Virus record (IMG/VR): IMGVR_UViG_3300036766_002285
Strand: one strand, 5' to 3'
Length of the DNA stretch: 64,000 nucleotides
Source: an uncultured virus (IMG/VR IMGVR_UViG_3300036766_002285)
Taxonomy: Duplodnaviria > Heunggongvirae > Uroviricota > Caudoviricetes
The notes beneath the pieces were generated by a model that ran no database searches, had not been told where the DNA came from, and worked only from the letters and a program-made list of their open reading frames with translations. This document shows, one piece after another, positions 31-41,749 of this stretch. The position numbers and the translations under genes were made by a program. Positions within the stretch are counted from its first letter, which is position 1. Each line of letters opens with the position of its first letter.

Positions 31-130
31 ATGAGCCTCTCTGTTCAATAAATTAAACGGAGATTTCGGGAAAAAATTAACCAACTTTGGCTAGTTCTTT
101 ATAGTTCGAGGCCTGCACCAGGCCCAGCAC
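31..130 (-). ncRNA. 3' part of putative omegaRNA / right end of tnpB lineage-B copy 1
   Basis: Minus strand reads CCGAAATCT-hairpin(CCGTTTAA/TTGAACAG)-AGAGGCTCAT, matching CCGAAATCT-hairpin-AGAGGTTCAA after the paralogue at 34835-34871. Similarity stops there. 5' boundary not defined. Confidence 0.65.
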
Positions 131-1131
131 TAGAGTGTTCATAGCCGCATTAATATCGCGATCATGAGTGATTCCACAATCACACGTCCAATGCCTTACT
201 GTCATCATGTCCCAACCTGTAGGGCCTGTTAAGGCTCCACATGCAGAACATGTACGAGTGGAATTCTTTGAAGGAACTTCGATATAGCGCGTACCGCCGG
301 CAAGGCTCTTGTATGCGAGTTGTTTACGAAGTTCCCCGTGACTTGCTGAAGCCACTGACTTTCCTAGCTTTTTTGCTATCTTTACATGGTTATCTTTAGA
401 GAATGCTATTAAAGAATTTTCTTGTACCAACCGATAAGATGTCTTATGGTTACGATCTTTACGTTGGTTCTTGATCTTTTCACTAATCCGAGCTACTAGT
501 TTAGTATTGCCACCACGTTGAGCTTGTCCTAGACGTATAGCAGAGTTCTCTAGTTCTTTTGGATGAGGAATCTTCTCCCCGGTAGATAAGGTTAGCAGGC
601 TTATATATCCAGGGTCGATACCTATTTCACCAAAAACTTTACGCTCAATAGGAGCTCGATCCGCGTCAATAAATAAGCATAAATACCAACCGGAAGCGCG
701 TTTTACTATTCTTCCACATTTAATTTTACCTACGGGAAGAGTTTGTTTATGAAAGCGTACTCGACCTATACCAGGCAGTTTAATATAGTTATCTTTTGGA
801 GCACAGATAGGATCTGGAAATGGTATGGAACTAAGTTTACGACGATTACCTTTCAGTTTGGGTTTACCAGCAGATTTTTTGAAACAGCGATCCCAAGACA
901 TATAGACAGTACTTAAAATACCACGAATAGTGTGACCCGAGATACCTATTTTTTACCGTGCCCTGCCAAAATATTAATAAAATCATAATGCGTATAATAG
1001 ATACCACATTTAGCATCCAATTCGATTTTACGAATTGCCCAATTATACACTCCGGTAAGTGAAAACAGCCAGGACTGTAGCTCTAATTCTTGGGCTGTTT
1101 TTAACCTGAGTTTAAGCTGGTATTGGAGCAT
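77..1131 (-). pseudogene. tnpB: TnpB (RNA-guided RuvC nuclease), lineage B, split by a 1-bp deletion
   Basis: ORFs 946-1146 and 77-901 join into a full homologue of 33774-34829 if the A6 run (T6 at 949-954) were A7 (HGKK-IGISGHTIRGIL). Motifs GIDPG, CSACG, HDRDINAA. Start set at MLQYQ by alignment. Confidence 0.85.
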
Positions 1132-1164
1132 AATAGTATACTGCATATTGTGCAGTATACTATT
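1132..1164. repeat. Perfect 14-bp inverted repeat directly upstream of the tnpB start
   Basis: AATAGTATACTGCA-TATTG-TGCAGTATACTATT. Confidence 0.85.
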
Positions 1165-1265
1165 AGTTAGTCAAGATACCTTAGTCATTATTATGGTAAA
1201 TTTGATGGTTTAATTGCCAACAATCTCTTGTAAACACCATATAACATTACTACAATCTCAGACAT

Positions 1266-1305
1266 AAAAAAGGGCCACAGTCACCGGTGTGGCAACTGCA
1301 GCCCT
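1266..1305 (-). terminator. Probable intrinsic terminator
   Basis: Minus strand AGGGCTGCAGTTGCC-ACAC-CGGTGACTGTGGCCCT followed by a T-run, downstream of 1445-3007. Confidence 0.6.
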
Positions 1306-1444
1306 CTTTAATATTTTTAAATTTCTATGGAAGTTTTCAATAAGGCAATAAGCATATAATTTCACGTCTTACTTAAAACTAATGAAAATTACCAAGCTAT
1401 AATTGAATTAAAAACAACGCCTAAACGCGTTAGCGTTCTGATTT

Positions 1445-3007
1445 TTAATATAGCGCTAGTTGTAAATCCTCTAGTGCTTCGGGAATAATGCGAGCATCTG
1501 CTTGCGTTAGTCCGTCTATGGTGTCTAATAATAGAGTTAAAGTCCCAGTCCAGTTATCTGCAAAAGAAAAATAACTTTCCCATGCTATAATCATATTCGG
1601 GGCTTGACTATTACTAAAACCAAGACGTTTTACGAGATACGGAAAAACAGCTTGTGCAACCGAGGAATCACTAAGTGAAGTACCTATCTCCAAGTCATAA
1701 AAAGGCAAAATCTCTTCAAATAGCCAATCGAACTTTTCACAGGCTTCTATTAGCACATTTAGAACAGCAATTTCTGCAGTTGGTGTGTTACTATATCTCA
1801 GAAAATATTTAAGGGTATCTTTTGGATCCGCTAGTAACGAAGCTACTATACCAGGCCGTAGACCATTAACCATATTCTCTGAGTTTTGAATCCAGTATAT
1901 AGTAGAAGTGCTTGACCCGACCTGTAGGAGCTCTAAAAGCAAGGCGCTTTCTAGCTTATGCGTTAAATTGCTCAAAATCTCATAAACACTTACCGTCTTA
2001 TATGAAGGTAAGCAGCTATAAGCATCTTCTTCAGTTTCACCGGCCAAGGCAAATTGTATAAATCTAACAACAAAGGCTTTTTCACAAGCCGCTGTCATAG
2101 GAGCAATACGCATACTTTGTAGTGCAGCACTTAAATGTTCTAGACTTCCAGTCAAAAGTACTTTTTGTATTTTTTCTGGGTCAGCTCCAGCCATAATGGC
2201 ACTTAAGAACTGTGCTGGGTTACCATCAACTAAAATGTCAGCAGCTCCAGGTTCAACTGAAGTAAACTTTGTTGTACGATGTCCAAAGTCCTCGCCAGCA
2301 TCTGTCGGATGGTGCTTTATCCAGCTATTACTAAGATCGCAGCTCAATAATTCACGTTCATCTAAGACATACTTCAATATAACATCTCGAGCGCCTAAAT
2401 GTGCCGGATGTGCCTCGATAATTGCCGACACACTAACACCTTTAATACTTCCGCTATTAGCTAGACTAGCTAGACAAGCATTCAGCTGAGTATGTGCACA
2501 GCTAGCTGCGGTCATAGCTAAGTCGGGTCTTGTGGCCAATCTTTCAGCCAACGGCCATGCCTTTAGTGTTATGTAAGCGACTCTGTTGTACTCGTTATTG
2601 TAAGAATTAGCATACTCTGATAATACAGAAGTCAGATCCTCCAAATTCATAACAGCGCAAGCAGAATCTAATGCAATTTGGTCATTTTTCAAAAATGCCC
2701 ATCTGGCTAGATCCATGCGTACAGCGTCGGGAGTTGATGGGTTTGCCATCAAATTTCTACGTACTGACACCCGGGTATCTTTAGCAAATTTAGCCAAAAT
2801 TTTTGGATCTGTTGAAGTATTTTGAGTTATGTATAAAACATGCTCCAAACTACCTTTGTACCATTTTTTAGCACTATTTGAAGATATGGCAACATTGTTG
2901 TTGGGTGCCATAGATACACCTTTATGAATGCGTGGAAATAACAGTTCTGCTAATTCGTCATGCGAATTCACGGACCAAAAATATTTCGCAATATTTGATT
3001 TTGACAT
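1445..3007 (-). CDS. Helical protein with leucine-rich-variant/HEAT-like repeat; paralogue of 13470-14858
   Basis: LAKFAKDTRVSVRRNLMANPSTP motif; C-terminal AWESYFSFADNWTGTLTLLLDT resembles GWEFLLVLSKEWNSTLIDLLET of 13470. Confidence 0.65.
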   Translation of the reverse strand: MSKSNIAKYFWSVNSHDELAELLFPRIHKGVSMAPNNNVAISSNSAKKWYKGSLEHVLYITQNTSTDPKILAKFAKDTRVSVRRNLMANPSTPDAVRMDLARWAFLKNDQIALDSACAVMNLEDLTSVLSEYANSYNNEYNRVAYITLKAWPLAERLATRPDLAMTAASCAHTQLNACLASLANSGSIKGVSVSAIIEAHPAHLGARDVILKYVLDERELLSCDLSNSWIKHHPTDAGEDFGHRTTKFTSVEPGAADILVDGNPAQFLSAIMAGADPEKIQKVLLTGSLEHLSAALQSMRIAPMTAACEKAFVVRFIQFALAGETEEDAYSCLPSYKTVSVYEILSNLTHKLESALLLELLQVGSSTSTIYWIQNSENMVNGLRPGIVASLLADPKDTLKYFLRYSNTPTAEIAVLNVLIEACEKFDWLFEEILPFYDLEIGTSLSDSSVAQAVFPYLVKRLGFSNSQAPNMIIAWESYFSFADNWTGTLTLLLDTIDGLTQADARIIPEALEDLQLALY

Positions 3008-3239
3008 TAATACTCATTTCTCGGGGGTATTTATATGATTTTACGAAGTCCTATAGACTATTGGCGCACGCAAGTAAAGCCAAACATATCTTGTCAAGGC
3101 AGCCACGTCTCATGGTTAAAAAAGTAGTTATATTTTCTACTAGTACGGCAATATTGTAGTAACCAGAGCTATCTACTTAGCTTGCTATATGCACTCCAGC
3201 CCTTACAGTATTATCGCAGCAACACTAAGGAGTATTTCC

Positions 3240-3494: not shown

Positions 3495-3524
3495 AACAGT
3501 TTTAATTACACAAGTGAGACTATT

Positions 3525-4056: not shown

Positions 4057-4131
4057 AGTTAATATATTAAGTATCTTGCATTTGGTCGCACCACAGCTAC
4101 AGTAATACCTAACTATAAGGAGAAAGCAAAT

Positions 4132-4395: not shown

Positions 4396-4409
4396 TCAAG
4401 GAAACAACT

Positions 4410-4622: not shown

Positions 4623-4839
4623 CCGCGACTACTTATAGTAGATCAGACGGCAAAAGAATTTTCGGCCGCAGAGTTATAGATAATCTACTTGCTTTTGGTC
4701 AAGTATATGACTATGGTATAACCTCTATAATCGAAGAACAATGGACTGACACTGCGCTTTTGCGGTTTCGTACCGTTCCTTTTGAGTGTTGTTTAGTGAC
4801 TCTTTAGGAGTTCTTCTTTACAGATGAACAGTTCTTGTT

Positions 4840-6225
4840 TTAGGCCACCATTGCTGGTTGCTTCAAGATTGACGCTTCATCGGCCACAACATTTATATCT
4901 TTAGAATTCATGGAATTCTTAGGTATTTTAGTTTTATGTAGGCCTTCACGTCCAGACTCCGGACTACTCCCGGTGTTTACTACTGTATTGCTTGGCTGAC
5001 TAGGTAACCCCAGTTTAGCCAAATTCACTGCTGCATTAAGATCTCTATTCAAGACATTAGGGCAAACAGTGCATTTATATATTCGATCAAAGCGTGGTAG
5101 TTTGGCTTTCACTATTCCACACTTTGAACATGTTTTACTAGAGGGATAGAACCGGTCAGCTATAACTAAAGTTGAGCCATACCAGAGCGTCTTATATTTA
5201 AGTTGCCTGTAAAATTCTCCAAGACCGCCGTCAGACATCTGTTTTCCTAGATGACCGCTTTGTACTATACCTGCGACATGTAAGTCTTCAACGACGATTC
5301 TATCAAAGTTTTTGGCAATATTCGTCGTAGTTTTGTTGGTTAAGTCTCTACGACAATTAGCAGGCTTTGCATGTATACGTCGAAGTCTTTCTTGTTCTTT
5401 AATATATCGGTTTGATGGTTTAGTGCCGGTTTGCTTATTATGGTTTTGTTTGCGTGCCAAGTTCTTGTTTGAACGCCTAAGTAGTTTAGCCTGTTTATCT
5501 GTATTTCGTGGATTTTCAGTTCTCAAAAGCTCTTCACCAGTCGGACTTGCTCCAATATGCAAAGTATTTATACCCACATCAATACCTATAATGCGGTTGC
5601 CTTTGCGCGGTGCTGGAATATCACGATCTACTTCTACAGTGAAAGATACAAACCATCTGTTTTGTTTATGAGACAAGGTGGCTGCTATAATTCTGCCTTT
5701 ACCGCGCTCCAGATGTCTGGCCAGTTTGCGGGTACTCTCATGGGTGCGGATCTGACCTATAACCGGAAGGAGTATATGGTGACGATCCAAAGTTACCCCA
5801 ATGTTTCCTGTGGTGAAGCGAACACTCTCATGCTGACTTCGTTTATGATATTTAGGGAACCCTACAGGTTGACCTTTTCGTTTGCCTGTTAAAGAATCGC
5901 GATGGTTTGATACCCCTAAAGATAACCGTTTGGTGCCATCCGAGTAGGCTTCCTTGGAATTCTCTTTCCACCAGGGGGCAACAATGTCTTTCTGGGCGTT
6001 CCAATACTTTCTTAACGCATAATGTGAAGTCGGAAAATAGGGTGTCAGTTCACTTTTTGCCACACCGGAACTTTTCTCAGCTTTTCTCTGATCGCGTGTG
6101 GCTTTCATACAACCAAGAAGATAATTGTAAACATACCTGGAAGCTCCCACATGAGAGCTACAAGCCCGTTCTTGTTCAGGGGATGGGTCAAGAGCAAACT
6201 TGTAAGACAGGTGTATTACACTCAT
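4840..6225 (-). CDS. tnpB: IS607-type TnpB, actinobacterial type
   Basis: YKFALDPSPEQ; APWWKENSKEAY; RuvC GIDVG / VVEDL / NRDLNAA; Zn finger CSKCG-CTVC. Confidence 0.93.
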   Translation of the reverse strand: MSVIHLSYKFALDPSPEQERACSSHVGASRYVYNYLLGCMKATRDQRKAEKSSGVAKSELTPYFPTSHYALRKYWNAQKDIVAPWWKENSKEAYSDGTKRLSLGVSNHRDSLTGKRKGQPVGFPKYHKRSQHESVRFTTGNIGVTLDRHHILLPVIGQIRTHESTRKLARHLERGKGRIIAATLSHKQNRWFVSFTVEVDRDIPAPRKGNRIIGIDVGINTLHIGASPTGEELLRTENPRNTDKQAKLLRRSNKNLARKQNHNKQTGTKPSNRYIKEQERLRRIHAKPANCRRDLTNKTTTNIAKNFDRIVVEDLHVAGIVQSGHLGKQMSDGGLGEFYRQLKYKTLWYGSTLVIADRFYPSSKTCSKCGIVKAKLPRFDRIYKCTVCPNVLNRDLNAAVNLAKLGLPSQPSNTVVNTGSSPESGREGLHKTKIPKNSMNSKDINVVADEASILKQPAMVA

Positions 6226-6343
6226 AAAGGTTTAACTTGTTCAGGCATGTCTCGTACAAGATCATCATTCCGTTCATCACGCAACCTACCTGCCGCTGTA
6301 TTCAATGTTCCGTCTACTTCACTAGCCCAATCTGAATGTTCAT
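6222..6343 (-). pseudogene. tnpA: Remnant of IS607 serine-recombinase transposase
   Basis: Frameshifted N-terminus MNI/SDWASEV joined to NDDLVRDM (typical IS607 TnpA start and DDLVRDM motif); ATGA overlap with tnpB. Confidence 0.7.
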
Positions 6344-6350
6344 ATATCTA

Positions 6351-6390
6351 GTATCGGCACTAGATGCCCCTTGATGGCACTCGATGCCGC
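6351..6390. repeat. IS607 left-end imperfect 10-bp direct repeats
   Basis: GTATCGGCAC / TAGATGCCCC / TTGATGGCAC / TCGATGCCGC. Confidence 0.7.
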
Positions 6391-7656: not shown

Positions 7657-7658
7657 CT

Positions 7659-8182: not shown

Positions 8183-8195
8183 ACACTCAGCACAA

Positions 8196-8800: not shown

Positions 8801-9211
8801 ATGAGAGAACCACGACATAAATTTGGTGATATTGTAAAACAGTCTGAAGGCATCCTTCGTGGTATAGAGCAAGTTGTACTAGACATTAAATGGGACGCAA
8901 TTAAAAAAAGATATATATGTCTCGTATGTAGTACACAAGTAATAGATCCCATGGCATATCCCGATCAAAAAAGTTGGTGGTTTGAAGAGGACCTAGTACC
9001 TGCGGGCGGACCTTTACCTGAAGAAGTTAATAAAAGTTTTACTAATAAAATAACTGGAGAAGTCGTTGAAGCACGTAAAGCGGAGGATGGTTCGTTTCGC
9101 TGGAATGTGCGTATAAGAAGGACAAAGTATTTTTCCTTGAGCAGAATTGGAAATGTTGAATTTTATGAGATGTATGAACCGACTCAGGCATATAATAGCA
9201 GGTCAAAATGA
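8801..9211 (+). CDS. Hypothetical protein, tandem paralogue of 9208
   Basis: GAGG SD; close similarity to 9208. Confidence 0.75.
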   Translation: MREPRHKFGDIVKQSEGILRGIEQVVLDIKWDAIKKRYICLVCSTQVIDPMAYPDQKSWWFEEDLVPAGGPLPEEVNKSFTNKITGEVVEARKAEDGSFRWNVRIRRTKYFSLSRIGNVEFYEMYEPTQAYNSRSK

Positions 9212-9516
9212 GAGATCCGCGATATAAAAAAGGAGATATTGTAAAAGAGTCTCAAGGCTTTCTGAGAGGCATTGAACAGATTGTAGTAGATATTACATGG
9301 AATACAACCGAGAAAAGATACGCATGTCATGTTTGCCCCTCAGAAATAACAGATCCAAAAGAGCAACGCGCGAATGGGGATTGGATATTTGAAGAGAACC
9401 TGACACTAGCTAGTGAGCCATTACCTGAAGAAATTAATCAAAGTTTTACTAATAAAATAACCGGAAAGATAATTCGTGCGAATAAAATAAAAGACGGCTC
9501 GTTTCGTTGGTACGTG

Positions 9517-11231
9517 TTTGTACTAGTTCCTAGTTTTATGGAACTTTATTGTGTTGTATAGTTGCATAATCTACTAGGTAAGGCATAGTATAAGGTATGA
9601 AGTTGCCTGAGTATGCAGTTAAAAAGCCGTCTCGTGTAGCGAAACCTAAAGGCCGGGTGTTACGTACCTTTGAGATGGTGCACGCGATGAACGCAGGTAA
9701 AGAGGAGCAAGTTCGGGCCGTCTATCACGCTTATCTACCACTGCTTGTTAAGACTTGCGCGATGCAGTATCGTCGGGTATTGTCTGGTGAAAAGATTTAT
9801 AACTGTGCTAACCCAAAACTTCTGGAAACAACCTTGTCTGAGCGTTACAAACGCAGTGCCAACAATCAGGCCTGCGAAACATTATCCTCCTGGGCTGCTC
9901 TTGTAGTAGTTGAGGTGCATAAGATTATCAAAAGTCTTGCCCATCTGTCGCATGAACATAAGAGCCGGCTACTCTATGTCAATGCTGCTCAACATTGGTA
10001 TCACACCGAAGATGATGGTACCTATCTTGTGCCCAGTTCCGTTCTCGATCCGGTTACCGGAAAATATCTGAAAGTTGCTAATAAGTTCGATGTGGTCAGT
10101 GCCGAGGATATGAAATTGTTGCGCTCAATCGTGAAACATGTTCGTAAGCACCGGGTGAGGCTCCCAGACTTATCCCACGTGCGTACCATGAAACTTAACG
10201 GAATTGTCTGCCAATGGGAAGCACCAGAATCTGCGAACAGTTTTGACTATTGGCTCCGGTTCTCTACTCTTACTAAAGGTAACCCGATACTCTTGCCGGT
10301 ACGTTCCACCTTTCATGAACAGGCACGTGAAGGGGTGTGGACTAACGCGACTCAAATCACGGTCCCTAAAACTGGACCTGTGGTCATCCGTATGGTGAAA
10401 GATGTTACCCCAGAATGTCGTCCAATACCTACTGGTGGGGTGGTTGGATTAGATTGGGGTATGAAAACGTTGTTTGCTACCTCCGAAGGCGGCTTGCTGG
10501 GACGGTCGTTTTATACCTGGCTTTTGAACATTGATAGTGAACTCACAGCCTTGACTGCGGCTCTGCAACGTCAAGGAATTAAACCCAGCACCTCGCCACG
10601 CTATCGCGCTATGCAGTCACGGATTAAGGCTTATGCTAAAAACGAGATCAACCGTATCTTGAACCGTATCGTAGACCTTTATGACCCAAGTGTTCTTGTT
10701 GTCGAGGAACTAAATTTTCGTCATGGTGGACTTTCTAAACGTTTGAATCGTATTATTAGCCGCATGGGTCGCGCTCAAGTGAAACAGAAACTTCAAGACC
10801 TCTCCCAAGACACCGGACTTGAAGTCACTATCGTCCCCGCAGCGTACAGCTCACAGGAATGTGTCGGTTGTGGTTTCGTAGACGACCGAAATAGAGTTAA
10901 AGAAGATTTTCGTTGCAAATTTTGTGGACGAAAAGGGCACGCCGATATTGAAGCTGCTCGTACAGTGAAGTCACGACGTTCGTGGCCGAGTGTGAGTTTG
11001 CAGTTCGGTAAGTCCAAAATCCTGCATAACATTGACGAACGGTTCACCCAGAGATGGGGAACCGATCCGAAGGCGCATCGCGCTAAGGGCCGTCGACCAC
11101 GTGCAGCGATAATACCAATACGCCCAAATGCAGACGGGCTAGGTGAGACATCAGATAACAGGTGCCTCACCAAAATTAGCATAAACAACGTCGCCTTAAA
11201 AGGGAACGTTGGTCTATGTTTTTAGATACTG
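9517..11231 (+). mobile_element. tnpB-only insertion element (probably IS607-like)
   Basis: Removal restores the host ORF in frame; TG(T) shared at both junctions; no terminal inverted repeats and no tnpA. Confidence 0.75.
9597..11225 (+). CDS. tnpB: Long (542 aa) TnpB-family RNA-guided nuclease
   Basis: RuvC GLDWG / VVEEL / HADIEAA; Zn finger CVGCG-CKFCG; N-terminal NAGK...LSERY pattern. Confidence 0.88.
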   Translation: MKLPEYAVKKPSRVAKPKGRVLRTFEMVHAMNAGKEEQVRAVYHAYLPLLVKTCAMQYRRVLSGEKIYNCANPKLLETTLSERYKRSANNQACETLSSWAALVVVEVHKIIKSLAHLSHEHKSRLLYVNAAQHWYHTEDDGTYLVPSSVLDPVTGKYLKVANKFDVVSAEDMKLLRSIVKHVRKHRVRLPDLSHVRTMKLNGIVCQWEAPESANSFDYWLRFSTLTKGNPILLPVRSTFHEQAREGVWTNATQITVPKTGPVVIRMVKDVTPECRPIPTGGVVGLDWGMKTLFATSEGGLLGRSFYTWLLNIDSELTALTAALQRQGIKPSTSPRYRAMQSRIKAYAKNEINRILNRIVDLYDPSVLVVEELNFRHGGLSKRLNRIISRMGRAQVKQKLQDLSQDTGLEVTIVPAAYSSQECVGCGFVDDRNRVKEDFRCKFCGRKGHADIEAARTVKSRRSWPSVSLQFGKSKILHNIDERFTQRWGTDPKAHRAKGRRPRAAIIPIRPNADGLGETSDNRCLTKISINNVALKGNVGLCF

Positions 11232-11383
11232 TATAGAACAAATTCAGATAATACAGATATTGCAGGCAAAAGTGGCTTTATTGGCAATGTCGAATTCCAT
11301 GATACATACGGGCCGACACCGCCAGATAGCGATCGGGGAATATTTGAAACAGAGCCTGATCTTTATAAAAATGGAGAACACAA

Positions 11384-11761
11384 ATGAACGCTAACTTAGA
11401 AAATCAAGACCAAAATTTAGCTAAACAGCTCGAGGATACTTTGCTGCTACTTGCGCAAGTAACCCTAGAGCGTGATATTGCCCAAGCGCAGCTAAACACT
11501 CCAGAATTACATGATTTTGCTAAAGGAGTAGTACTAGAAGCAGCTCACCAGCGTTTAGCTTGGAGTCCAGAACATGACGCGCAAAAATCTGCTCCCGACT
11601 GGTTCTGGCTGTTAGGATATTTGGTAGGTAAAGCTGTGCAGGCAGACAAAGAGAACAATACAGACAAAGTATTCCATCACATTATCACAACTGCAGCTGC
11701 GTGCGCAAACTGGCACGCGCATGTAACTAGAGAAAATATAAACACAGGAGAAATAACATGA
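11384..11761 (+). CDS. Phage-type protein, possibly MazG-like all-alpha fold
   Basis: NTPELHDFAKGVVLEAAHQR...DWFWLLGYLVGKA...HHIITTAAACANWH. Confidence 0.6.
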   Translation: MNANLENQDQNLAKQLEDTLLLLAQVTLERDIAQAQLNTPELHDFAKGVVLEAAHQRLAWSPEHDAQKSAPDWFWLLGYLVGKAVQADKENNTDKVFHHIITTAAACANWHAHVTRENINTGEIT

Positions 11762-28151: not shown

Positions 28152-28409
28152 ATGTTTGGAAAAAAGAAGAAAGAAGATAAAATAGTAGACGATGCCTTCA
28201 AGAAAGCTTTCAATACCGCGCCAGTTTATCATGTCGGTGAAACCGTCTGGGTAAGAATTGATCCGCCCCAACAGCCGCAATTAGCAGTTGTGCTGGATAT
28301 TGATGTTTATGATAAATGGCATGTATTAGTAGAGATTAAAGATACCGGTAAAGAAGTATGGGTAGGTAGCATAGATTCTCCAGAAGTGACGAAGTCTTTT
28401 ATTTGTTGA
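28152..28409 (+). CDS. SH3/KOW-like protein; its stop codon lies inside the tnpB right end
   Basis: AAGGAG SD; YHVGETVWV; TGA 28407-28409 is within the TTGA element end. Confidence 0.65.
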   Translation: MFGKKKKEDKIVDDAFKKAFNTAPVYHVGETVWVRIDPPQQPQLAVVLDIDVYDKWHVLVEIKDTGKEVWVGSIDSPEVTKSFIC

Positions 28410-28530
28410 CATCCTCCTCACAGTTTTAACAACTATAAGGATTCCAGTTACTATTGTAGTAGTAACTGAGGTACGCGGCTCACAGGCCTGGATAACTCCA
28501 AGCCTCCCCGCGAAAATACGACGTGTCCCG
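28406..28530 (-). ncRNA. Putative omegaRNA 3' scaffold / right end, lineage A copy 1
   Basis: CCTCAGTTACT...AGTAACTGGAATCC-hairpin-GGAGGATGTCAA is shared by three copies and similarity ends exactly at TCAA. Confidence 0.75.
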
Positions 28531-29620: not shown

Positions 29621-29685
29621 GTAGTTATAGTATCGGTACTAGTTTTCCTAATAGCAGTCTGGCCAGTCTAGCTAATCCAAAACTG

Positions 29686-30215: not shown

Positions 30216-30683
30216 TCATCCATCCATTCTATAGTCTTGTCTACGCGCATCTTCAACATCATCATTAAGTTGCACAATTGTGTCTTTAAACATTTTGAGC
30301 TGCACTCGCGCCCTATCGCCGATATCATCGTGGTCAGAACCATGTTCTTCTGAGCTTCTAATGTATTCCTCAATACACTGCACAATCGCGCTGCTTTCTG
30401 GAACTCCTTGTTCTTTCTCAAATTTTGCCACAGTTTCTGCTTCTTCTAGATCTATTTGTGCTTGTGACGGTCTTTCTATGAGCTCAAGTTCGTCTTCGTC
30501 AAATGCATCGCGCATTATAGAAGTCCCCATCGGCAAATCAACGCTGATATTCTTTTTGTCACCCCGCCACGCCTGGTATGCATCAGTTACGATACCTACA
30601 ACATCATATCTTGAATTATTTTTATATTTTAACGGCCGCACCCTGTCTCTTACTTGAAATTTTCTTGATGTATTACTGCTCAT
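30216..30683 (-). CDS. Hypothetical protein with SH3-like N-terminus
   Basis: KFQVRDRV...FDEDELEL; ATG 2 nt after the tnpB right end. Confidence 0.65.
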   Translation of the reverse strand: MSSNTSRKFQVRDRVRPLKYKNNSRYDVVGIVTDAYQAWRGDKKNISVDLPMGTSIMRDAFDEDELELIERPSQAQIDLEEAETVAKFEKEQGVPESSAIVQCIEEYIRSSEEHGSDHDDIGDRARVQLKMFKDTIVQLNDDVEDARRQDYRMDG

Positions 30684-30685
30684 CT

Positions 30686-30815
30686 TTGACATCCTCCATA
30701 TTATCTACCATTGTGGCGATTCTAAGGATTCCAGCTACTATTGTAGTAGTAACTGAGGTTTGCTGCTCACAGGCTTGGGTAAACCTAAGCCTCCCCGCGA
30801 AAATACGACGTGTTC
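30686..30815 (-). ncRNA. Putative omegaRNA 3' scaffold / right end, lineage A copy 2
   Basis: Same scaffold ending GGAGGATGTCAA; terminal hairpin differs. Confidence 0.72.
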
Positions 30816-31906
30816 TGCTGCGATATTCTTTGCTGCATTCACATCAGCGTTCTCTGCGTGTTCGCACAATAAACACTCAAATTCCGCTTGGCTCTTGCGG
30901 TTTTTGGTGTTTGTATAAGTGCAAACATTACAGCGTATAGATGTGTTTACAGAACTTACTTTTTCTAAACGGTTACCTACTTTATCTTGAAATCTTCTGT
31001 CAGATCGACCCCAGCCATTCTTTAGAATTTCTCTAGTTAATCCAGACTTGGCTTTGACATTTGTGCCTGGATTTAAGATAGTACCTTTAGCAGATTTGGT
31101 CATATTCTTTACTTTAAGGTCCTCGATTCTAATTATATCAAAGCTGCCAGCAAGCCTGGTGGTCATTTTTCGACTGCATCTTTACAACGGTTTATTCTAC
31201 GATGCTCAAGTTTGCTAATCATTAGTTTGGTTTTCTTGTGATTGTTAGATCCGGGTACTTGGCGGGACAGTTTACGTTTAAGATGTAGCATTCTCCTCTG
31301 TTCGACTACACTAAGTCCAGGAATTTTAACCATTTCACCTGTACTCAATACAAATGACTGAGCTACACCTCTATCTACACCTACAATTTTACCGTTACCT
31401 GGAGCTGGAATAGGTTTAGGGATGACTGCAAAAGATATCCACCAGCGGCCAGCCCGGTCTAAAGTTACTCGATATGATTTAATATCACCTGGATCACAGC
31501 TCCAACGCCAATCAACCCAACCTATTTTAGGAATATTTACTCTAGCACGTTTACGATTCATGCGCTCGAAACGTTTAGCTTCTTTACCTATAATACGGAA
31601 ACCTTCATTAAGGCCGGCTTTACGAAAAGTTGGGTGCCCGTGAGTACCTTTCCACCAATTTTTAAATGCTTGATCTAGATCACGGAGAGCTTGTTGCTGT
31701 ATTATAGCAGAACCCTCTTTAAGCCAGGAATCTTTTCGGGCTTCTGTAAGCTGCGCAGACTGAGCATTATAGCTAGGAGTAGGACCGAACTCTTTACGAT
31801 ACATGTTGCGTTGCTCTAAACCCACGTTATATACGTAACGAGCATGTCTACAATGCTCTAGGAGAAGAATTTCTTGGATTTGAGTAGGATAGAGACGAAA
31901 TTTCAT
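30738..31906 (-). pseudogene. tnpB: TnpB lineage A copy 2, 1-bp frameshift
   Basis: ORFs 31163-31906 and 30738-31166 join if one base is restored at the A5 run (T5 at 31166-31170). Confidence 0.88.
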
Positions 31907-32052
31907 GTATTAACAGTATCGGTACTTAATAGCTATAACTAGAATACTATAGTAAGATATTGTGCTATAAATAATAGCGTAAATGCCAGTATCAGTTGTT
32001 TGAAGGGAAGTCCTGCTGAAAATAGGAGATTTGGTAAATGCATGATCGCTGT

Positions 32053-33710: not shown

Positions 33711-33773
33711 ATCATAATTATTGTAATATCTTGCCTATATAGCAATGTCCCACACAATATAGAGTATATTATT

Positions 33774-34829
33774 ATGATCCAACATCAAATTAAACTCAGA
33801 CTTAAATCAAAACAAGAAAAACAGCTGAACGATTGGCTGTTTTATCTTACCGGAGTCTATAACTGGGCTGTCCGTAAAATTGAGCAAGATGCTAAATATG
33901 GTATTTATTACACGCGCTACGATTTCATAAATCTTCTCGCTGGCCACGGTAAAAAGATGGGTATCCCAAGCCATACTATGCAGGGTATATTAGATACGGT
34001 CTTCACTGCATGGCAACGCTGTTTCAAAAAACTTGGTGGTAAACCTAAACTGAAAAGTAATCGCCGTAAACTTAATTCCATACCATTCCCAGACCCTATT
34101 AGTGCTCCTGTTGGTAATTACATTAAATTGCCTGGTATAGGTCAAGTACGTTTTCATAAACAAACTCTTCCCGTAGGTAAAATTAAATGTGGTCGAATAA
34201 TTAAACAGGCTTCCGGTTGGTATTTATGCTTATTTATTGACGCCAAAAGAGCTCCTATTGAACGTAAAGTTTTTGGTGAAATAGGTATCGACCCTGGATA
34301 TATAAACCTGCTAACCTTATCTACCGGGGAGAAGATTCCTCATCCAAAAGAACTAGAGAACTCTGCTATACGTCTAGGACAAGCTCAACGTGGTGGCAAT
34401 ACTAAACTAGTAGCTCGGATTAGTGAAAAGATCAAGAACCAACGTAAAGATCGTAACCATAAGACATCTTATCGGTTGGTACAAGAAAATTCTTTAATAG
34501 CATTCTCTAAAGATAACCATATAAAGATAGCAAAAAAGTTAGGAAAGTCTGTGGCTTCAGCAAGTCACGGGGAACTTCGTAAACAACTCGCATACAAGAG
34601 CCTTGCCGGCGGTACGCGCTATATCGAAGTTCCTTCTAAGAATTCCACTCGTACATGTTCAACCTGTGGGGCGCTATCTGGCCCTACAGGCTTTAGCATG
34701 CTGACAGTAAGGCATTGGAAGTGTGATTGTGGAATCACTCATGACCGCGATATTAACGCGGCTGTGAACACTCTAATGCTGGGCCTGGTGCAGGCCTCGA
34801 ATTTTAAAGAGTTATCTCTAGTTAGGTAA
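33774..34829 (+). CDS. tnpB: TnpB lineage B copy 2 (intact frame, atypical RuvC-II)
   Basis: Start MIQHQIKLRL by alignment with copy 1; GIDPG, IAFSKDN, CSTCG, HDRDINAA. Confidence 0.9.
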   Translation: MIQHQIKLRLKSKQEKQLNDWLFYLTGVYNWAVRKIEQDAKYGIYYTRYDFINLLAGHGKKMGIPSHTMQGILDTVFTAWQRCFKKLGGKPKLKSNRRKLNSIPFPDPISAPVGNYIKLPGIGQVRFHKQTLPVGKIKCGRIIKQASGWYLCLFIDAKRAPIERKVFGEIGIDPGYINLLTLSTGEKIPHPKELENSAIRLGQAQRGGNTKLVARISEKIKNQRKDRNHKTSYRLVQENSLIAFSKDNHIKIAKKLGKSVASASHGELRKQLAYKSLAGGTRYIEVPSKNSTRTCSTCGALSGPTGFSMLTVRHWKCDCGITHDRDINAAVNTLMLGLVQASNFKELSLVR

Positions 34830-34871
34830 TTCTTCCGAAATCTTTGCAGATAAATCTGTGAAGAGGTTCAA
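34775..34871 (+). ncRNA. Putative omegaRNA 3' scaffold / right end, lineage B copy 2
   Basis: CCGAAAT-CTTTGCAGAT-AA-ATCTGTGAAG-AGGTTCAA; 5' boundary uncertain. Confidence 0.7.
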
Positions 34872-34964
34872 ATTTGGGTAATTAATCGTTTAATTGCGGC
34901 TATTGACAGGGCAACTACTTTTACGCTACAATCCTTAGTAAACAAGTACACTACGGGCATTTAA
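34872..34964 (+). repeat. 93-bp copy of the last 31 codons of gene 35040-35435, at the guide position
   Basis: Matches 35343-35435 with 6 mismatches. Confidence 0.95.
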
Positions 34965-35039: not shown

Positions 35040-35435
35040 ATGGAACAACTTATTCCGATTATTGATAATGATTTTCTTAGTGCTGTTGCAGATAAGCTAT
35101 CTCTTCGCCTAGTAAATCCATCTAAGTATGTTATTGCATCAGGTGAACGCCATGGAAGTTTATTTATTAGTGCAGCCTGGACACAAGATGATATCACCAA
35201 AGACGCTACAATTTCTTTTACTAGCAGTAGTAAAGCCGGCACTATGTTTGTAATAACTGTCACAGCTTCAGGGTCAACAAATACTCATTGGTTTAAAAAA
35301 GATCTCTTAGACGCTAGGCGTGCTCCAGCACAAATATCTGAAGTCTGGGTAATTAATCGTTTAATTGCGGCTATTGATAGGGCAACTACTTTTACGCTAC
35401 AATCCTTAGTAAACAAGTACACTACCGGCATCTAG
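35040..35435 (+). CDS. Hypothetical protein (leaderless), distantly related to 35458
   Basis: GCGCCAATAGT ends 7 nt before the ATG; IT(V)TASGS...W motif. Confidence 0.75.
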   Translation: MEQLIPIIDNDFLSAVADKLSLRLVNPSKYVIASGERHGSLFISAAWTQDDITKDATISFTSSSKAGTMFVITVTASGSTNTHWFKKDLLDARRAPAQISEVWVINRLIAAIDRATTFTLQSLVNKYTTGI

Positions 35436-35457
35436 GATTGCAACTACAGTAGGAACT

Positions 35458-35934: not shown

Positions 35935-36335
35935 GCACTTGGACCCCGTCTCGAAGAAACCTAGCTGAGGTTCTTAAAGATATTCAGGCAGATTTTGTTC
36001 TAAAAGTTCATAGCGATGTTTGGATGATAGAAGATCTGGGTGACGACGACAGCTGGCACGTATTTACTCCTTATGTTTTAGATGATGGTGATGGTTTAGC
36101 TATTACATTAAAATATAAAAATAAGCAGTGGACTTTATCTGACGAAGCACACACCTATCTTGCCAGTTTTTTAGATATGGGCTTACCAAAATATCGTAAG
36201 CAGGTAGCCTCGATTTCAGCACAATATAACATTCAAGACGACAAGGGTAATCTTAAACTTCTTGTCAAAGACAATCAGTTTGGTGATGCTTTGTTTACTT
36301 TTACCCAAGCACTTTTAGCTATAGCGAATCTATAA
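35931..36335 (+). CDS. DUF1828-like protein
   Basis: VFTPYVLDDGDGLAI...WTLSDEAHT. Confidence 0.7.
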   Translation: MSTWTPSRRNLAEVLKDIQADFVLKVHSDVWMIEDLGDDDSWHVFTPYVLDDGDGLAITLKYKNKQWTLSDEAHTYLASFLDMGLPKYRKQVASISAQYNIQDDKGNLKLLVKDNQFGDALFTFTQALLAIANL

Positions 36336-36343
36336 TAAACACT

Positions 36344-36649
36344 ATGAGTATTGAAGAGGATTTCAAAGAGCTTACCAGAAAATGGTTGGAAGAGACAATG
36401 TTCTCTTCCAACACCCTAGATACCATTTTAAATGTGCACTATCAACAAATAATTTCTATTGGTAGAGGTGATCCAGAAATTCTTCGTCTTATTTTAGAAG
36501 ATCTTAAAATAACAGGAAACCACTGGTTTTACGCACTTTATATACTCACACAGGGTGCTGACCCAGCTGTGGATTGTCCTCCCGGCGACATGCGTGCAGT
36601 TCAGCAGGCGTGGCTAGCCTGGGGCCGCGAAAAGAAAATAATTAATTAA
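36344..36649 (+). CDS. Conserved hypothetical protein
   Basis: F.EL..KW.EET.FSS...HYQQII..G...HWF.AL..LT...AWLAWG pattern. Confidence 0.7.
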   Translation: MSIEEDFKELTRKWLEETMFSSNTLDTILNVHYQQIISIGRGDPEILRLILEDLKITGNHWFYALYILTQGADPAVDCPPGDMRAVQQAWLAWGREKKIIN

Positions 36650-36655
36650 GGTATT

Positions 36656-37633
36656 TTAGTTTTCCCGTACTTTTTGAGATAGAACCTTAGCTAAATTCTC
36701 TATAGCCGTTTTTTGCTTAGAAGTTAATTCACTAGGAACAACAATATCTACTGTCACAATTAAGTCACCAAAAACCTTATTTACTACTACTCCTTGTTTT
36801 CTTACGCGATGTCTGGACCCAGTCTGCGTTCCTGGTGCCAGTCGCAGGGTTACTCCAAGTCCATCCAAAGTTGGAACTTTTATATCTCCACCTAAAGCTG
36901 CCTCTGTAAAAGTGATAGGCACGCGCACTTTAAGATTTAAACCTTCTCGCTCAAATATTGGATGCGGCATTACTTTACACACTATATAGAGATCTCCAGG
37001 CTTCCCCCCATTATGGCCAACTTCCCCCCGGCCCGCTACTTTTATTCGTTGTCCGTCATCAACTCCAGCCGGGACCCGTATTTTCATATTTTGGTTACTA
37101 CTTGTCTTTCCGGTCCCCTTGCATGCTTTACATAAGCGTTCTCCTGTATTTGAACTAATGCCAGATCCGTGGCAGATACTGCATTGAGTATCAAATGCGA
37201 TCTCTAAGGTATTTAGCCCATGTATGGCATCAACAAAATCTAAAGTCACAGCTACTTCTATATCGCTGCCACGTATAGCACCAAAATTGTTACGTGTTTG
37301 CGCACCAAACAGATGAGAAAATAAGTCACTCATTTCATCACTATCCATATTAAAATTACTGGTTCTTGGTCCAGAAGTTCCGTTGCCATTATAGGGACTA
37401 TATCCAATTTGGCGAGCCTCGTCATATTCTTTGCGTTTCTCTGCATTACCCACCACATCATAGGCTTGACTGATTTCTTTGAACTTATCTTCGGATGCAG
37501 TTTTGTTAGGATTTACATCTGGATGAAACTTTTGGGCCAATTTCCTGTATGCTTTGGTTATTTCTTTATCAGTAGAATTGCTACTAACTCCAAGTATTTT
37601 ATAGTAGTCTTTTTCTAACCATTCACGCTGCAT
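36656..37633 (-). CDS. dnaJ: Chaperone DnaJ with shortened zinc-finger region
   Basis: [12 protein letters not shown], only two CxxCxGxG motifs, C-terminal domains. Confidence 0.93.
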
Positions 37634-37635
37634 AA

Positions 37636-38118
37636 TTATCCCCGCACTTTCACGAGCGCTGCTCGCAGTACTTGGCCGCGAAAGCAGTAACCTGGTCTTA
37701 GAATTTCAGTAATTATACATTTGTCTGTTACGCCGGGCTCATGAATCATAGCCTGACTATAAGTCGGATCAAAAATTTTCCCTTTCAGATCAAGTGTCTC
37801 AAGACCCTGGGTTTGCAATGCTCCTAGTAACAATGCTCTGATTGGCTCTGCCTCAAGATTTCCATGAACAATTGCAGCATCAAGGGCATCTAAGGTTGGC
37901 AGCAAAGATTCAATGGTTCTCCCAGACCCTCGATCTATCTCCAGACCAGTCTGGCTAGCTATTCTTTTACGATAGTTCTCAAAGTCTGCTTGCAGTCTGA
38001 GGATACAATCACGTAGATCGTCTCGCTGCTTTAGCAGCTCTTCAGTGCTTTCTGTAATCGGGGCATTTTCTTGAAGATCTATAAATCCGCGTTCAAAAAT
38101 TTCTGCTTGTTCATCCAT
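37636..38118 (-). CDS. grpE: Nucleotide exchange factor GrpE
   Basis: [21 protein letters not shown]...LRAALVKV. Confidence 0.93.
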
Positions 38119-38136
38119 AATATAGTCGTTTACGTT

Positions 38137-39954
38137 CTATTTTTCTTCAACTATTTCAGCATCTACAATATCATTATCCGTGGCCTTTGGATCTGGCCCG
38201 CTTGCTGTATTCTGACTGGCTGTTTCATAGAGTTTACGACCAAATTCTTGGCTGGAAGCTCTAAGTTTTTCGACCACATTTTTTATCGCAGCAGTTTCAT
38301 TACTATCTAGAACCTTTTTAAGTTCCGCACAAAGCTCTTCTACTGGTGTTTTGTCAGCCTGTGATAGTTTCTCACCAGCTTCACGGAGAGTTTTTTCTGT
38401 CTGATACAGCAACGAATCTGCACTATTGCGAACTTCGGCCATCTCTCTGGCCTCGTGATCCTCTTTTTCATGCGCTTGTGCATCTTTGACCATTTTATCT
38501 ATAGCATCTTTAGATAACGAAGATTGTCCAGTAATAGTCATGGACTGTACTTTAGATGTGGCAAGATCTTTAGCCGACACATGCACTATACCATTAGCGT
38601 CAATATCAAAAGTGACTTCAATCTGGGGAACTCCTCTAGGTGCTGGGGGCAGGTCAGTTAAACTAAATTTTCCAAGAGTCTTATTGAAACTAGCCATTTC
38701 GCGTTCTCCTTGTAACACATGTATCTCAACTGAAGGCTGCAGGTCATCAGCTGTAGAAAATATTTCAGATCGCTTAGTTGGAATAGTGGTATTACGTTCA
38801 ATAAGTTTAGTCATGACTCCACCTTTAGTTTCAATACCTAAAGATAATGGCGTGACATCCAATAACAAGATATCTTTAACATCTCCTCTAAGCACTCCCG
38901 CTTGTACAGCCGCTCCTATAGCAACTACTTCATCTGGGTTTACGGTACGGTTCGGCTCACGGCCACCCAAGAGTTGTACAAGTTCACTTACCGCAGGCAT
39001 TCTGGTAGATCCGCCAACTAATATAACATGGTCTAATGCACCTTTTGATAGTTTAGCATCCGATAAAGCTTGTTCAAAAGGTTTACGGCAGCGCTCGAGA
39101 AGATCTATCGTGAGCTCTTGAAATTTTGCCCGAGATAGAACCTCATCTAGGTGTAGCGGTCCCGCCGCTGTTGCTGTGATAAAAGGCAGATTTATTTGTG
39201 TTTGCATGGTTTGTGATAGTTCAATCTTTGCTTTTTCAGCTGCTTCCTTAAGTCTTTGTGCAGCCATTTTATCTGTACCCAAGTCAATACCGTGGGCGGA
39301 TTTAAATTGTTGTACTAGCCAATCTATAATGCGCTGGTCCCAATCGTCACCACCGAGATGAGAATCCCCGTGGGTACTTTTTACTTCAAATATACCATCA
39401 CCTATTTCTAAAACGCTAACATCAAAAGTTCCACCACCCAAGTCAAATACTAAAATAGTTTCGTCTTTTCCTTCCTTGTCTAGACCGTACGCAAGAGCAG
39501 CCGCTGTAGGTTCGTTAATAATTCGTAGCACCTCGAGGCCCGCAATTTGGCCCGCTTCTTTGGTAGCTGTACGCTGTGCGTCATCAAAATATGCAGGTAC
39601 TGTAATTACAGCTTGGGTTACTGGTTCTCCTAAGTAAGCTTCAGCATCCCGTTTTAGTTTCATTAAAATTCTAGCAGAGATTTCTTGAGGGGTATATTTT
39701 TTCCCATCAATATCGTCAGATTTCCAACTCTCTCCCATATGGCGCTTTATACTGCGAAATGTTCTACTCGGATTAGTAATTGCTTGTCGTTTGGCTACCT
39801 CTCCTACTAAAACTTCTCCAGCTTTTGAAAAAGCCACCACCGATGGAGTGGTTCTTGCCCCTTCTGAGTTCGGTATTACAATAGGTTCTCCGGCTTCTAA
39901 AACAGATATCACTGAATTAGTAGTTCCCAGGTCAATTCCAACAGCTTTGCTCAT
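38137..39954 (-). CDS. dnaK: Chaperone DnaK (monoderm/actinobacterial type)
   Basis: [14 protein letters not shown]; short N-terminal subdomain; [10 protein letters not shown] tail. Confidence 0.98.
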
Positions 39955-40135
39955 TATGTTTCCTCTCAAAGATACGTTTTTGTGTTTATGGTATATATAC
40001 AATAGTTCCCAGTCGCATGCGAATTGCAATCATTTAAAACACAAAAAGACCCACCAAATCCTTTATTTTACAGAACCACACAAATGTGCCAGTAGTCACT
40101 AAAAGAACAAAACATCAAACTCTTAAATACTGTAA

Positions 40136-40331
40136 TTAAGGCAGGGGTCTAATTATCTTTGCCAGTAGTTCGCTACCACCAACTTTAACACTCAACTCTC
40201 CACTGTGCGTGGTCATAATTGTTCCACTAACACCAATTAAGTCGCCTCGGTCCCAGTCACCAGTCCTAGCAAAAGTCTCATCTCCAACAACCGCTTGTGA
40301 AACAAATAGTTGAATTTCACCCGACTGGTCC
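40136..40331 (-). pseudogene. lysS: Fragment of lysyl-tRNA synthetase anticodon-binding OB-fold domain (not in ORF track)
   Basis: DQSGEIQLFVSQAVVGDETFARTGDWDRGDLIGVSGTIMTTHSGELSVKVGGSELLAKIIRPLP*; no start codon. Confidence 0.82.
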
Positions 40332-40460
40332 TTGACATCCTCCCTGTAGCCTTTAACAACTATAAGGATTCCAGCTACTAAACTAACAGTAACTGAGGTT
40401 CACGGTTCACAGACCCGGTTAGCACCAAGTCTCCCCGCGCGCTTACGACGTGTCCCGCTA
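40332..40460 (-). ncRNA. Putative omegaRNA 3' scaffold / right end, lineage A copy 3
   Basis: Same scaffold ending GGAGGATGTCAA. Confidence 0.75.
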
Positions 40461-41548
40461 CAATATTCACTGCTTGCATTCACATCAGCGTTATCTGTGT
40501 ATTCACACTTAATACAGCTAAAAACCGCTTGGCTCTTGCGATTCTTAGCTGAAGTGTACTTACACTCACTACAACGCCTGGATGTGTTTACAGGATTTAT
40601 TTTCTCTATACGACCAGAAGCTTTATCTTCAAACCTACGGTCAGAGAAGCCCCAGCCGTTTTTTAGAATTTCTCTAGTCAAACCTGACTTAGCTTTAACA
40701 TTAGTGCCTGGATTTGCAAGAGTACCTTTAGCAGATTTAGTCATATTCTTTATGTTCAGATTCTCGATACGGATTAAATCAAAGCTCCTAGCAAGCCAGG
40801 TAGTTAGTTTTTCAACACAATCTTTACAACGGTTGATTCTACGATGCTCTAGTCTATTAATCATTAGTTGAGTTTGCTTATAATGATTAGATCCTTTTAT
40901 CTGTTTGCTAAGTTTACGTTTAAGTTGTAATGACTTCTTCTGTTCTTTCATACTAAGTCCAGGAATTTTAACCATTTCACCTGTACTCATTGTAAATGAT
41001 TGGGTGATACCTCTATCTATGCCGACAATTTTGCCATTACCTGGAGCCGGGATAGGTTTAGGAATTACTGCAAAAGCTATCCACCAGCGTCCGGCACGAT
41101 CTAAAGTTACTCGATACGATTTAATGGCACCAGGATTTCTAGTCCAGCGCCAGTCTACCCAACCTATTTTTGGGATATTTACTCTAGCACGTTTACGTGA
41201 CATGCGCTCAAAACTTTTTGCTTCCTTGCCCACAATACGAAAACCCTCATTTTGACCGGCTTTACGAAAAGTTGGATGTCCGTGGGTACCTTGAAACCAG
41301 TTTTTAAATCCTTGATCCAGATCGCGCAGGGCTTGTTGTTGTACTGTTGCTGATCCATCTTTAAGCCAGGAATCTTTACGAGCTTCTGTAAGTTGTGCGC
41401 ATTGAGCATTATAGTTGGGAGTGAGTCCGAACACTTTACTATACATATTGCGTTGCTCTAAACCCATGTTATATACGTAACGGGCATGGTTACAGTGCTC
41501 CAGTAGAAAAATTTCTTGAGCTTTGGTAGGATAGAGACGAAATTTCAT
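40400..41548 (-). CDS. tnpB: TnpB lineage A copy 3; a 1-bp insertion near 40474 changes only the C-terminal tail
   Basis: GIDRG / IRIENL / NADVNA retained; canonical tail (AVNIVAGHVV...PQLLLV*) continues in another frame to 40378. Confidence 0.92.
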   Translation of the reverse strand: MKFRLYPTKAQEIFLLEHCNHARYVYNMGLEQRNMYSKVFGLTPNYNAQCAQLTEARKDSWLKDGSATVQQQALRDLDQGFKNWFQGTHGHPTFRKAGQNEGFRIVGKEAKSFERMSRKRARVNIPKIGWVDWRWTRNPGAIKSYRVTLDRAGRWWIAFAVIPKPIPAPGNGKIVGIDRGITQSFTMSTGEMVKIPGLSMKEQKKSLQLKRKLSKQIKGSNHYKQTQLMINRLEHRRINRCKDCVEKLTTWLARSFDLIRIENLNIKNMTKSAKGTLANPGTNVKAKSGLTREILKNGWGFSDRRFEDKASGRIEKINPVNTSRRCSECKYTSAKNRKSQAVFSCIKCEYTDNADVNASSEYCSGTRRKRAGRLGANRVCEP

Positions 41549-41749
41549 GTAACATTAGTATCGGTACTTAGTATTCAGAGTTTAATGAAAACTATACTAC
41601 CAATCAAACAAAGATTATAATTCACTATTACTGTCAATAGAAATAAGTGCCTAAAAGTATCATTATAGCACTATATCAGTATGGAGAAAAAATGCCAAAT
41701 GGTCTAAAAGAACTCACCCTCAAACTACCAGTAAGTATGAAACATATCT

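Follow-up and report, generated by a model that had tools for sequence, protein, structure and literature searches.

Most OMEGA transposons consist of a nuclease-RNA module alone and are non-autonomous, and those parts of the survey by Altae-Tran et al. (2023, PMC10691335) that deal with mobility describe 89% of TnpB clusters as immobile, with no recent mobility, and solo TnpBs as mobilized in trans. The mark of an autonomous IS200/IS605 or IS607 element is an adjacent Y1 or serine TnpA. The same survey describes TnpB clades with a "rearranged" RuvC-II, which are probably active via a relocated acidic residue and some of which are enriched in viruses. For IS200/IS605 elements with TnpA on multicopy plasmids, a TnpB gene drive has been shown experimentally (Mears et al., 2025 preprint, PMC11870625). 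Here we compare with these systems a stretch of 64,000 nucleotides from the uncultured-virus record IMGVR_UViG_3300036766_002285 of IMG/VR (the whole stretch analyzed, hereafter the window), which carries seven tnpB genes within 41.5 kb. The seven copies are most probably ordinary non-autonomous OMEGA modules, namely IS1341-type tnpB-only elements plus one IS607 deletion derivative. A tnpB without a transposase is the usual state of these selfish elements and not a new kind of system.

A model-made first-pass annotation of the window had proposed seven tnpB genes of four lineages. Both counts were borne out: the listing of open reading frames (ORFs) and scans with Pfam and NCBIfam place TnpB-family genes, as single ORFs or ORF pairs, at all seven coordinates, and when each copy is run by tblastn against the window, four groups emerge, with 23–29% identity across lineages. 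All seven match OrfB_IS605, Cas12f1-like_TNB or HTH_OrfB_IS605 in Pfam (accessions PF07282, PF01385, and PF12323), and guided_TnpB or IS607_TnpB in NCBIfam. Lineage A comprises T1 and T6 (88–90% amino acid and about 85–86% nucleotide identity), lineage B only the IS607-type T2, lineage C only the large and divergent T3, and lineage D the copies T4, T5, and T7, all on the minus strand and sharing 71–85% amino acid identity. The guided_TnpB cutoff is passed by T1, T2, T4, T6, and T7, while T3 falls just under it (92.7 bits, cutoff 100) and T2 scores 441.5 bits with IS607_TnpB against a curated cutoff of 350. The features are as follows.

32–1190, minus strand: T1 element, lineage A, with a frame-broken tnpB at 77–1131 (Pfam, NCBIfam, alignment to T6).
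4623–4839, minus strand: T2 3′ non-coding stretch, candidate omega-RNA region (fold z = −2.3).
4840–6225, minus strand: T2 tnpB, lineage B, intact, 461 aa, IS607-type (NCBIfam).
6240–6284, minus strand: possible IS607 serine TnpA relic RDERNDDLVRDMPE, inside the open frame 6225–6347 (tblastn, profile scan).
9597–11225, plus strand: T3 tnpB-like gene, lineage C, intact, 542 aa (Pfam TNB domain, phrog_12300).
11226–11383, plus strand: T3 3′ non-coding stretch, candidate omega-RNA region (fold z = −3.6).
28406–29647, minus strand: T4 element, lineage D, with an intact tnpB of 389 aa at 28451–29620 (Pfam, alignment).
30686–31931, minus strand: T5 element, lineage D, tnpB at 30738–31906 split by a 1-nt deletion.
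33715–34871, plus strand: T6 element, lineage A, with an intact tnpB of 351 aa at 33774–34829.
40332–41576, minus strand: T7 element, lineage D, tnpB at 40400–41548, 382 aa, its tail altered by a 1-nt insertion.

With IS1341-type IS200/IS605 elements the window copies share the domain order known from ISDra2 TnpB (PDB 8exa, 8bf8, 8h1j), that is HTH, OrfB_IS605, and zinc-finger TNB, along with the RuvC motifs, a predicted omega-RNA that overlaps the tnpB 3′ end and stops at the right end, a flank-derived guide, and the lack of tnpA. Identity to ISDra2 TnpB itself is only distant (T6 aligns to it with an E-value of 4e-16), and two lineages differ from it at the catalytic site: the NADxN form of RuvC-III in lineage D is that of the clade labeled "derived" in PMC10691335, and lineage A has Ser in place of the RuvC-II Glu. 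The latter lineage resembles the "rearranged" clades as that survey labels them, since its Glu is substituted throughout the family but RuvC-I, RuvC-III, and the zinc finger are retained, and since it is frequent in viral contigs; the largest such clade in the survey has Gly at this site, whereas lineage A has Ser. The other two lineages resemble IS607 elements such as those of the Mycobacterium celatum plasmid pCLP and of Thermus phage TMA: T2 is 42–44% identical to the IS607 TnpB of mycobacterial plasmids, and an alignment of 471 aa gives T3 an identity of 31% to the TMA protein. In the IS607 references, however, a serine TnpA of ~190 aa abuts tnpB, and the window has at most a 15-residue relic beside T2.

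The claim that no intact transposase accompanies these genes holds for the 64-kb window by every scan applied. Profile scans found no transposase family other than TnpB among the 88 ORFs of at least 70 aa in the window, and none of the 126 small frames in the 700-bp flanks of the elements matched Y1_Tnp or Resolvase at E ≤ 0.05. Hidden Markov models (HMMs) that we built for Y1 and IS607 TnpAs recovered their positive controls but returned nothing better than E ~1 over 2378 six-frame pieces of the window. The result of tblastn against the window was the same (nothing better than E about 1) with annotated seeds comprising the Y1 TnpA of Saccharomonospora phage PIS 136 and the serine TnpAs of Thermus phage TMA, M. 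celatum pCLP, and a Thermaerobacter plasmid. The adjacent Y1 or serine TnpA that marks an autonomous element was thus found beside no copy in the window.

A 120-bp IS607 tnpA remnant had also been claimed in the first-pass annotation, and this stands only in part. The best piece in the TnpA-HMM scan of the window is RDERNDDLVRDMPE at 6240–6281, which lies on the same strand as T2 and directly upstream of its start, and matches residues 146–159 of two IS607 TnpAs with 10 of 14 (M. celatum IS607) and 9 of 13 identities. The position is fitting but the score alone (E about 1–2) is not significant and Pfam gives no match here, so that RDERNDDLVRDMPE is a plausible relic of an IS607 tnpA; as far as the letters go, the tnpA beside the intact T2 has probably been nearly deleted. 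No TnpA trace was seen beside T3.

Relatives of the four lineages mostly present the same picture. For lineage A, 2222 homologues were found at E ≤ 1e-10 among 3959 candidates scored, with 62 loci in IMG/VR viral contigs. A Y1 TnpA abuts tnpB upstream in eight of these 62 and lies farther off in one, an unrelated-looking serine recombinase lies downstream in two, and the rest have no TnpA within 3 kb; 54 of the 62 are without an adjacent TnpA. Lineage D is represented in reference genomes by 56 actinobacterial loci at ~50% identity, 54 of them solo, with a Y1 TnpA within 3 kb in the other two and a serine TnpA in none. Its exact right-end pattern had no match in viral contigs or in metagenome contigs, and a protein-seeded scan of the metagenome contigs yielded only three relatives, 58–63% identical, with no TnpA within 5 kb. 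An exhaustive profile-free search for T3 returned 296 cluster representatives at E ≤ 1e-30; among annotated relatives, the IS607-type TnpBs of Thermus phages TMA and YS40 come closest (30–31% identity). A serine TnpA stands directly upstream of T3-like genes in Thermus phage TMA and in one further relative (L127), and directly upstream of T2-like genes on M. celatum pCLP and a Thermaerobacter plasmid. Going by the TnpA types of these relatives, Y1 for lineages A and D and serine for B and C, mobilizing all four lineages would need both classes. The solo IS605-type tnpB of the P1-like phage RCS47 is another ordinary case.

A further gene was seen among the lineage A relatives. In contig L065 a 44-aa ribbon-helix-helix (RHH) gene (937–1068; RHH_1, 22.5 bits, cutoff 20.5) overlaps the tnpB start, and similar upstream DNA suggests that L070 and L119 have it as well; the window copies T1 and T6 do not carry it. 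It resembles an Arc accessory gene that is reportedly named in the title of a 2026 preprint.

Open frames with a catalytic set are present in four of the seven copies, T2, T3, T4, and T6, the last with Ser at the RuvC-II Glu. The full DED triad is kept in lineages B, C, and D. In T4 and T7 it consists of D178, E262, and D355, accompanied by the four Cys of the zinc finger; in the T3 family alignment D286, E370, D450, and four Cys are invariant; and in T2 the motifs GIDVG, VVEDL, and NRDLNAA and a CxxC...CxxC zinc finger can be read directly. RuvC-III of lineage D has the NADxN form. In lineage A the canonical RuvC-II Glu is Ser (IAFSKDN in T6) in all 22 aligned family members, as checked against ISDra2 TnpB. 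The RuvC-I Asp, the RuvC-III Asp, and the zinc finger are retained, so that a D-E-D triad is present only in the "rearranged" sense, with the invariant E218 and D247 as candidate compensating acidic residues. To judge from these residues and from the dN/dS values, the lineage D RNA structure, and the differing flanks described below, the modules look functional or recently functional.

The remaining three frames are interrupted. T1 has a 1-nt deletion after an A-run, somewhere in 941–960, and T5 a 1-nt deletion in an A-run, somewhere in 31158–31174, each splitting the ORF in two. In T7 a 1-nt insertion (about 40475) six codons past the RuvC-III Asp replaces the last ~25 residues; the original tail is still readable in another frame (ORF 40378–40479). 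The altered tail also occurs in P0128, a protein from a different contig, which indicates that the change predates the T7 copy. All three breaks are single-base indels at or beside short A-runs and may have arisen recently in the DNA itself or may be homopolymer errors of the assembly. Among the contigs of X1, the one DNA sequencing run (a sediment metagenome) in which the sequence was found, none has an indel variant recorded where T5 is broken, which gives weak support to a real frameshift there.

The ratio of non-synonymous to synonymous change (dN/dS), a check that the first-pass annotation had named, came out at 0.08–0.29 in all pairwise comparisons. By the Nei–Gojobori method it is 0.13–0.25 for the lineage D pairs (dS 0.36–0.83) and 0.08–0.29 for the lineage A pair (dS 0.21–1.97), from which we conclude that the tnpB copies have been under purifying selection. 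Values well below 1 were obtained for the broken copies too, which argues that the breaks are recent or are homopolymer errors. The T1/T6 pair is a mosaic, with 69–77% identity in the first 300 nt and 94–100% over roughly positions 500–900, including a perfect run of 214 nt that was reached in none of 5000 shuffles. The tract indicates that these copies, 33 kb from each other, or their ancestors exchanged sequence by gene conversion or recombination.

Right ends could be placed in five of the seven copies (T1 at 32, T4 at 28406, T5 at 30686, T6 at 34871, and T7 at 40332; not in T2 and T3). Alignment of the lineage D copies begins ~25 nt before the ATG and extends to a common GGAGGATGTCAA, 45–52 nt past the T4/T5-type stop, where similarity stops abruptly; in T4 this point is 28406. 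The terminal motif GGAGGAYRTCAA, which follows GGAATC and a variable hairpin, is kept in L062 and L063, whose proteins are 58–63% identical. A structure resembling an omega-RNA overlaps the 3′ end of the lineage D tnpB and finishes at the right end. RNAalifold on five sequences gave 48 pairs, with 91.6% of cells paired against 30–41% when partners were slid and 16 of the 48 pairs changed on both sides against 1–7 when slid, and none of 500 shuffles scored as high. The 3′ nucleotides are conserved although T7 reads another protein frame there, which points to constraint on the RNA.

In lineage A, GGAATCCCC-hairpin-GGGGAGGTTCAA follows the stop codon in 11 viral-contig relatives, and T6 and T1 keep the terminal hairpin (34830–34871 and 32–76, respectively) and its flanking helix with compensating changes. 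This comparison puts the right ends at 34871 and at 32, the latter being close to where the first-pass annotation had begun its feature, at 31. A right end at CGAAATCT (61 in T1, 34843 in T6) had been considered and was ruled out by comparison with the relatives. The T2 3′ region folds below its shuffles (z = −2.3, folded as 4623–4900) and has no relatives alignable at the DNA level, and that of T3 reaches z = −3.6 against shuffles (folded as 11100–11390).

The presumed guides are 8–31 for T1, 28386–28405 for T4, 30666–30685 for T5, 34872–34891 for T6, and 40312–40331 for T7. That every copy has a different guide, as first annotated, is true of these five: the 20–24 nt past the right ends all differ. 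The difference is uninformative, as elements inserted at different sites must show differing flanks. None of the guides has a match elsewhere in the window. An exact search of viral contigs with four 20-nt guides gave 0, 0, 0, and 1 matches, and the single match (in L129) is taken as chance, as that contig shares nothing else with the window.

Several observations concern the DNA beside the elements. An 89-bp direct repeat (34875–34963 and 35346–35434, 97–98% identical) begins 4 nt past the T6 right end, and its second copy is the 3′ end of an uncharacterized ORF at 35040–35435; positions 4–20 of the presumed T6 guide are consequently identical to 35346–35362, while the first three positions differ. 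The first copy may be what is left of a paralogous gene that T6 broke on arrival, but the T6 left flank holds no matching 5′ part of such a gene. Abutting the T7 right end is an open frame (40139–40399, minus strand) that scores 27.8 bits (E 2.5e-6, cutoff 27) with PF01336, the OB-fold anticodon-binding domain of class II aminoacyl-tRNA synthetases. It is not followed by a complete synthetase gene, and this frame may be what remains of a gene at the T7 insertion. The window has six occurrences of the word CCGATACT, where 1.03 would be expected. Four of these sites lie upstream of T2, T4, T5, and T7, two unrelated tnpB lineages, all on the minus strand (6350–6357, 29629–29636, 31915–31922, and 41557–41564), at about 125 nt from T2 and 8–15 nt from the other three, in the similar context GTRCCGATACTA.

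In our preferred explanation, in which the copies are ordinary non-autonomous modules, each would consist of a tnpB whose 3′ end, with a short downstream stretch, encodes the omega-RNA scaffold; the scaffold would end at the transposon right end, so that the adjoining flank is read as guide. Four unrelated lineages would have piled up in an accessory, ORFan-rich part of a 616-kb contig, delivered by a past or present TnpA that works in trans and is encoded elsewhere on the replicon or in the host, presumably of the Y1 type for lineages A and D and of the serine type for B and C. Their persistence may be due to cleavage of element-free sites by TnpB and its omega-RNA, after which recombination copies the element back, and T1, T5, and perhaps T7 may now be decaying. 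The first-pass annotation had held that selection retains the RNA-guided module rather than the transposase. The dN/dS values, the catalytic residues, the RNA covariation, and the tnpA trace beside T2 agree with this, but retention is not uniform.

Several points weigh against this explanation. The trans-acting TnpA is assumed, and our search for TnpA covered the 64-kb window of the 616-kb contig. Frame-breaking single-base indels, missed by the first-pass annotation, affect three of the seven copies (T1, T5, and T7). Copies within a lineage are old, with no near-identical pair and no mark of recent transposition. Left ends are poorly defined: the copies have only ~25 nt in common upstream of the ATG in lineage D and ~55 nt in lineage A, a stretch that includes a −10-like box, and a conserved left-end hairpin could be shown for no lineage. 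No contig joint in X1 skips an element, with the qualification that contigs drop rare variants and excised forms. Finally, the explanation does not account for so dense a local cluster, seven copies within 41.5 kb.

The window proteins belong to a contig of 616,293 bp, covered about 40x in X1, which outside the window encodes at least two more lineage-D-like TnpBs (P0125, 88%, and P0147, 64%). Two further relatives, P0126 and P0128, lie on contigs of 14 and 81 kb. The X1 contigs break at tnpB copies, where summed depth rises from about 40 to 70–120, and this rise over parts of tnpB implies more family members in the sample. Window genes include dnaK-grpE-dnaJ, ruvA-ruvB, ssb, two-component systems, and genes for pentapeptide-repeat, RCC1/FN3, RTX, and Lcl_C proteins and several proteases. 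About half of the window ORFs are without a family, and metabolic genes are lacking. We found no tRNAs in the window, no Rfam family at gathering score, and no phage hallmark among its proteins. Megablast of 36000–44000 against plasmids and phages gave no match, a 520-aa ORF (1445–3007) has no relatives in viral contigs, and a 584-aa ORF (58568–60322) has no match in phages. DnaK and RuvB searched against phages, and RuvB against a protein atlas, gave generic bacterial-type matches of 50–68% with no taxonomic or replicon signal. The replicon may be part of the chromosome of an unsampled bacterium, or it may be a giant extrachromosomal element.

The second of these settings would suit the reading offered in the first-pass annotation, in which a multi-copy or co-infecting replicon, a huge phage or plasmid, keeps the nuclease module by a TnpB and omega-RNA gene drive after loss of TnpA. 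The idea is that of PMC11870625 as set out there, namely that cleavage of element-free replicon copies biases inheritance, and the mechanism is real for the plasmids of that preprint; a related homing model is reported elsewhere. Lack of metabolic genes, the share of ORFs without a family, and one ORFan that stands alone among 5.8 billion proteins fit an extrachromosomal element, and the commonness of lineage A in viral contigs, the T1/T6 recombination tract, and the possible tnpA relic beside intact T2 are likewise what a drive might leave. We nevertheless consider this reading unlikely. Nothing shows a multi-copy, viral, or co-infecting replicon, given the lack of phage hallmarks, of tRNAs, and of matches in the phage, plasmid, and viral collections, and the DnaK-GrpE-DnaJ, RuvAB, SSB, and two-component genes fit a chromosome equally well. 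Three of the seven copies are damaged, and the X1 contigs hold no element-free allele, though such contigs drop rare variants. Solo tnpB is as common on chromosomes (the 54 of 56 lineage D loci), so no special setting is needed to explain it. In its strongest form, a giant extrachromosomal element or megaphage that shed its transposases and keeps an OMEGA battery purely by omega-RNA-guided homing and gene conversion among co-resident genomes, the proposal is more doubtful still; if it were true, homing would have left its marks in the T1/T6 conversion tract and in the tnpA relic next to T2.

It is very improbable that the TnpBs have been domesticated to serve the replicon, as TldR-like guide-directed regulators or as a nuclease for defense or competition. 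Immobilization and exaptation are frequent according to PMC10691335, the copies are old and under purifying selection, and lineage A lacks the canonical RuvC-II Glu. The Ser variant, however, is family-wide in a lineage that still travels with a Y1 TnpA (eight of 62 loci), and the DED triad is intact in lineages B, C, and D. Each presumed guide is just the flank of its copy, all are different and without another match in the window, the one exact match in viral contigs comes from DNA that shares nothing else with it, and the neighbor genes differ at every copy. The TldR-like combination, in which catalytic residues are lost and both the guide and an association with a host gene are conserved, was not found. 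That the copies are inert relics, dead insertion-sequence fragments kept by chance, would fit the disrupted frames, the short or undefined left ends, and the lack of near-identical copies and hence of recent mobility, but we give it next to no credence given dN/dS well below 1 even in broken copies (so that the breaks are recent), compensatory changes that maintain the RNA helices, and four fully open frames with catalytic residues.

Taken as ordinary non-autonomous modules, the seven copies are a well-documented case of the commonest TnpB state, solo, guide-RNA-bearing, and partly decaying, on an unusually ORFan-rich contig of 616 kb. They contribute four TnpB/omega-RNA pairs from nature whose scaffold ends can be defined, and one of these, the Ser-for-Glu variant of RuvC-II, is common in viral contigs and could be assayed. 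Should the replicon be a multi-copy giant element without any TnpA, it would be a naturally occurring system in which to test TnpA-independent persistence through gene drive, an idea demonstrated to date on laboratory plasmids only.

The remainder of the window holds some further oddities. The ORFan mentioned above is a 462-aa protein (13470–14858, minus strand) with no match in Pfam, PHROG, or NCBIfam and only itself among 5.8 billion clustered proteins. Two uncharacterized ORFs at 8801–9561 (plus strand), just upstream of T3, are ~70% identical in DNA. Three Lcl_C-domain ORFs stand in a row as tandem paralogues at 25013–26336 (minus strand), and the RCC1/FN3 protein, encoded at 16040–19750 (minus strand), has 1236 aa and long internal repeats.

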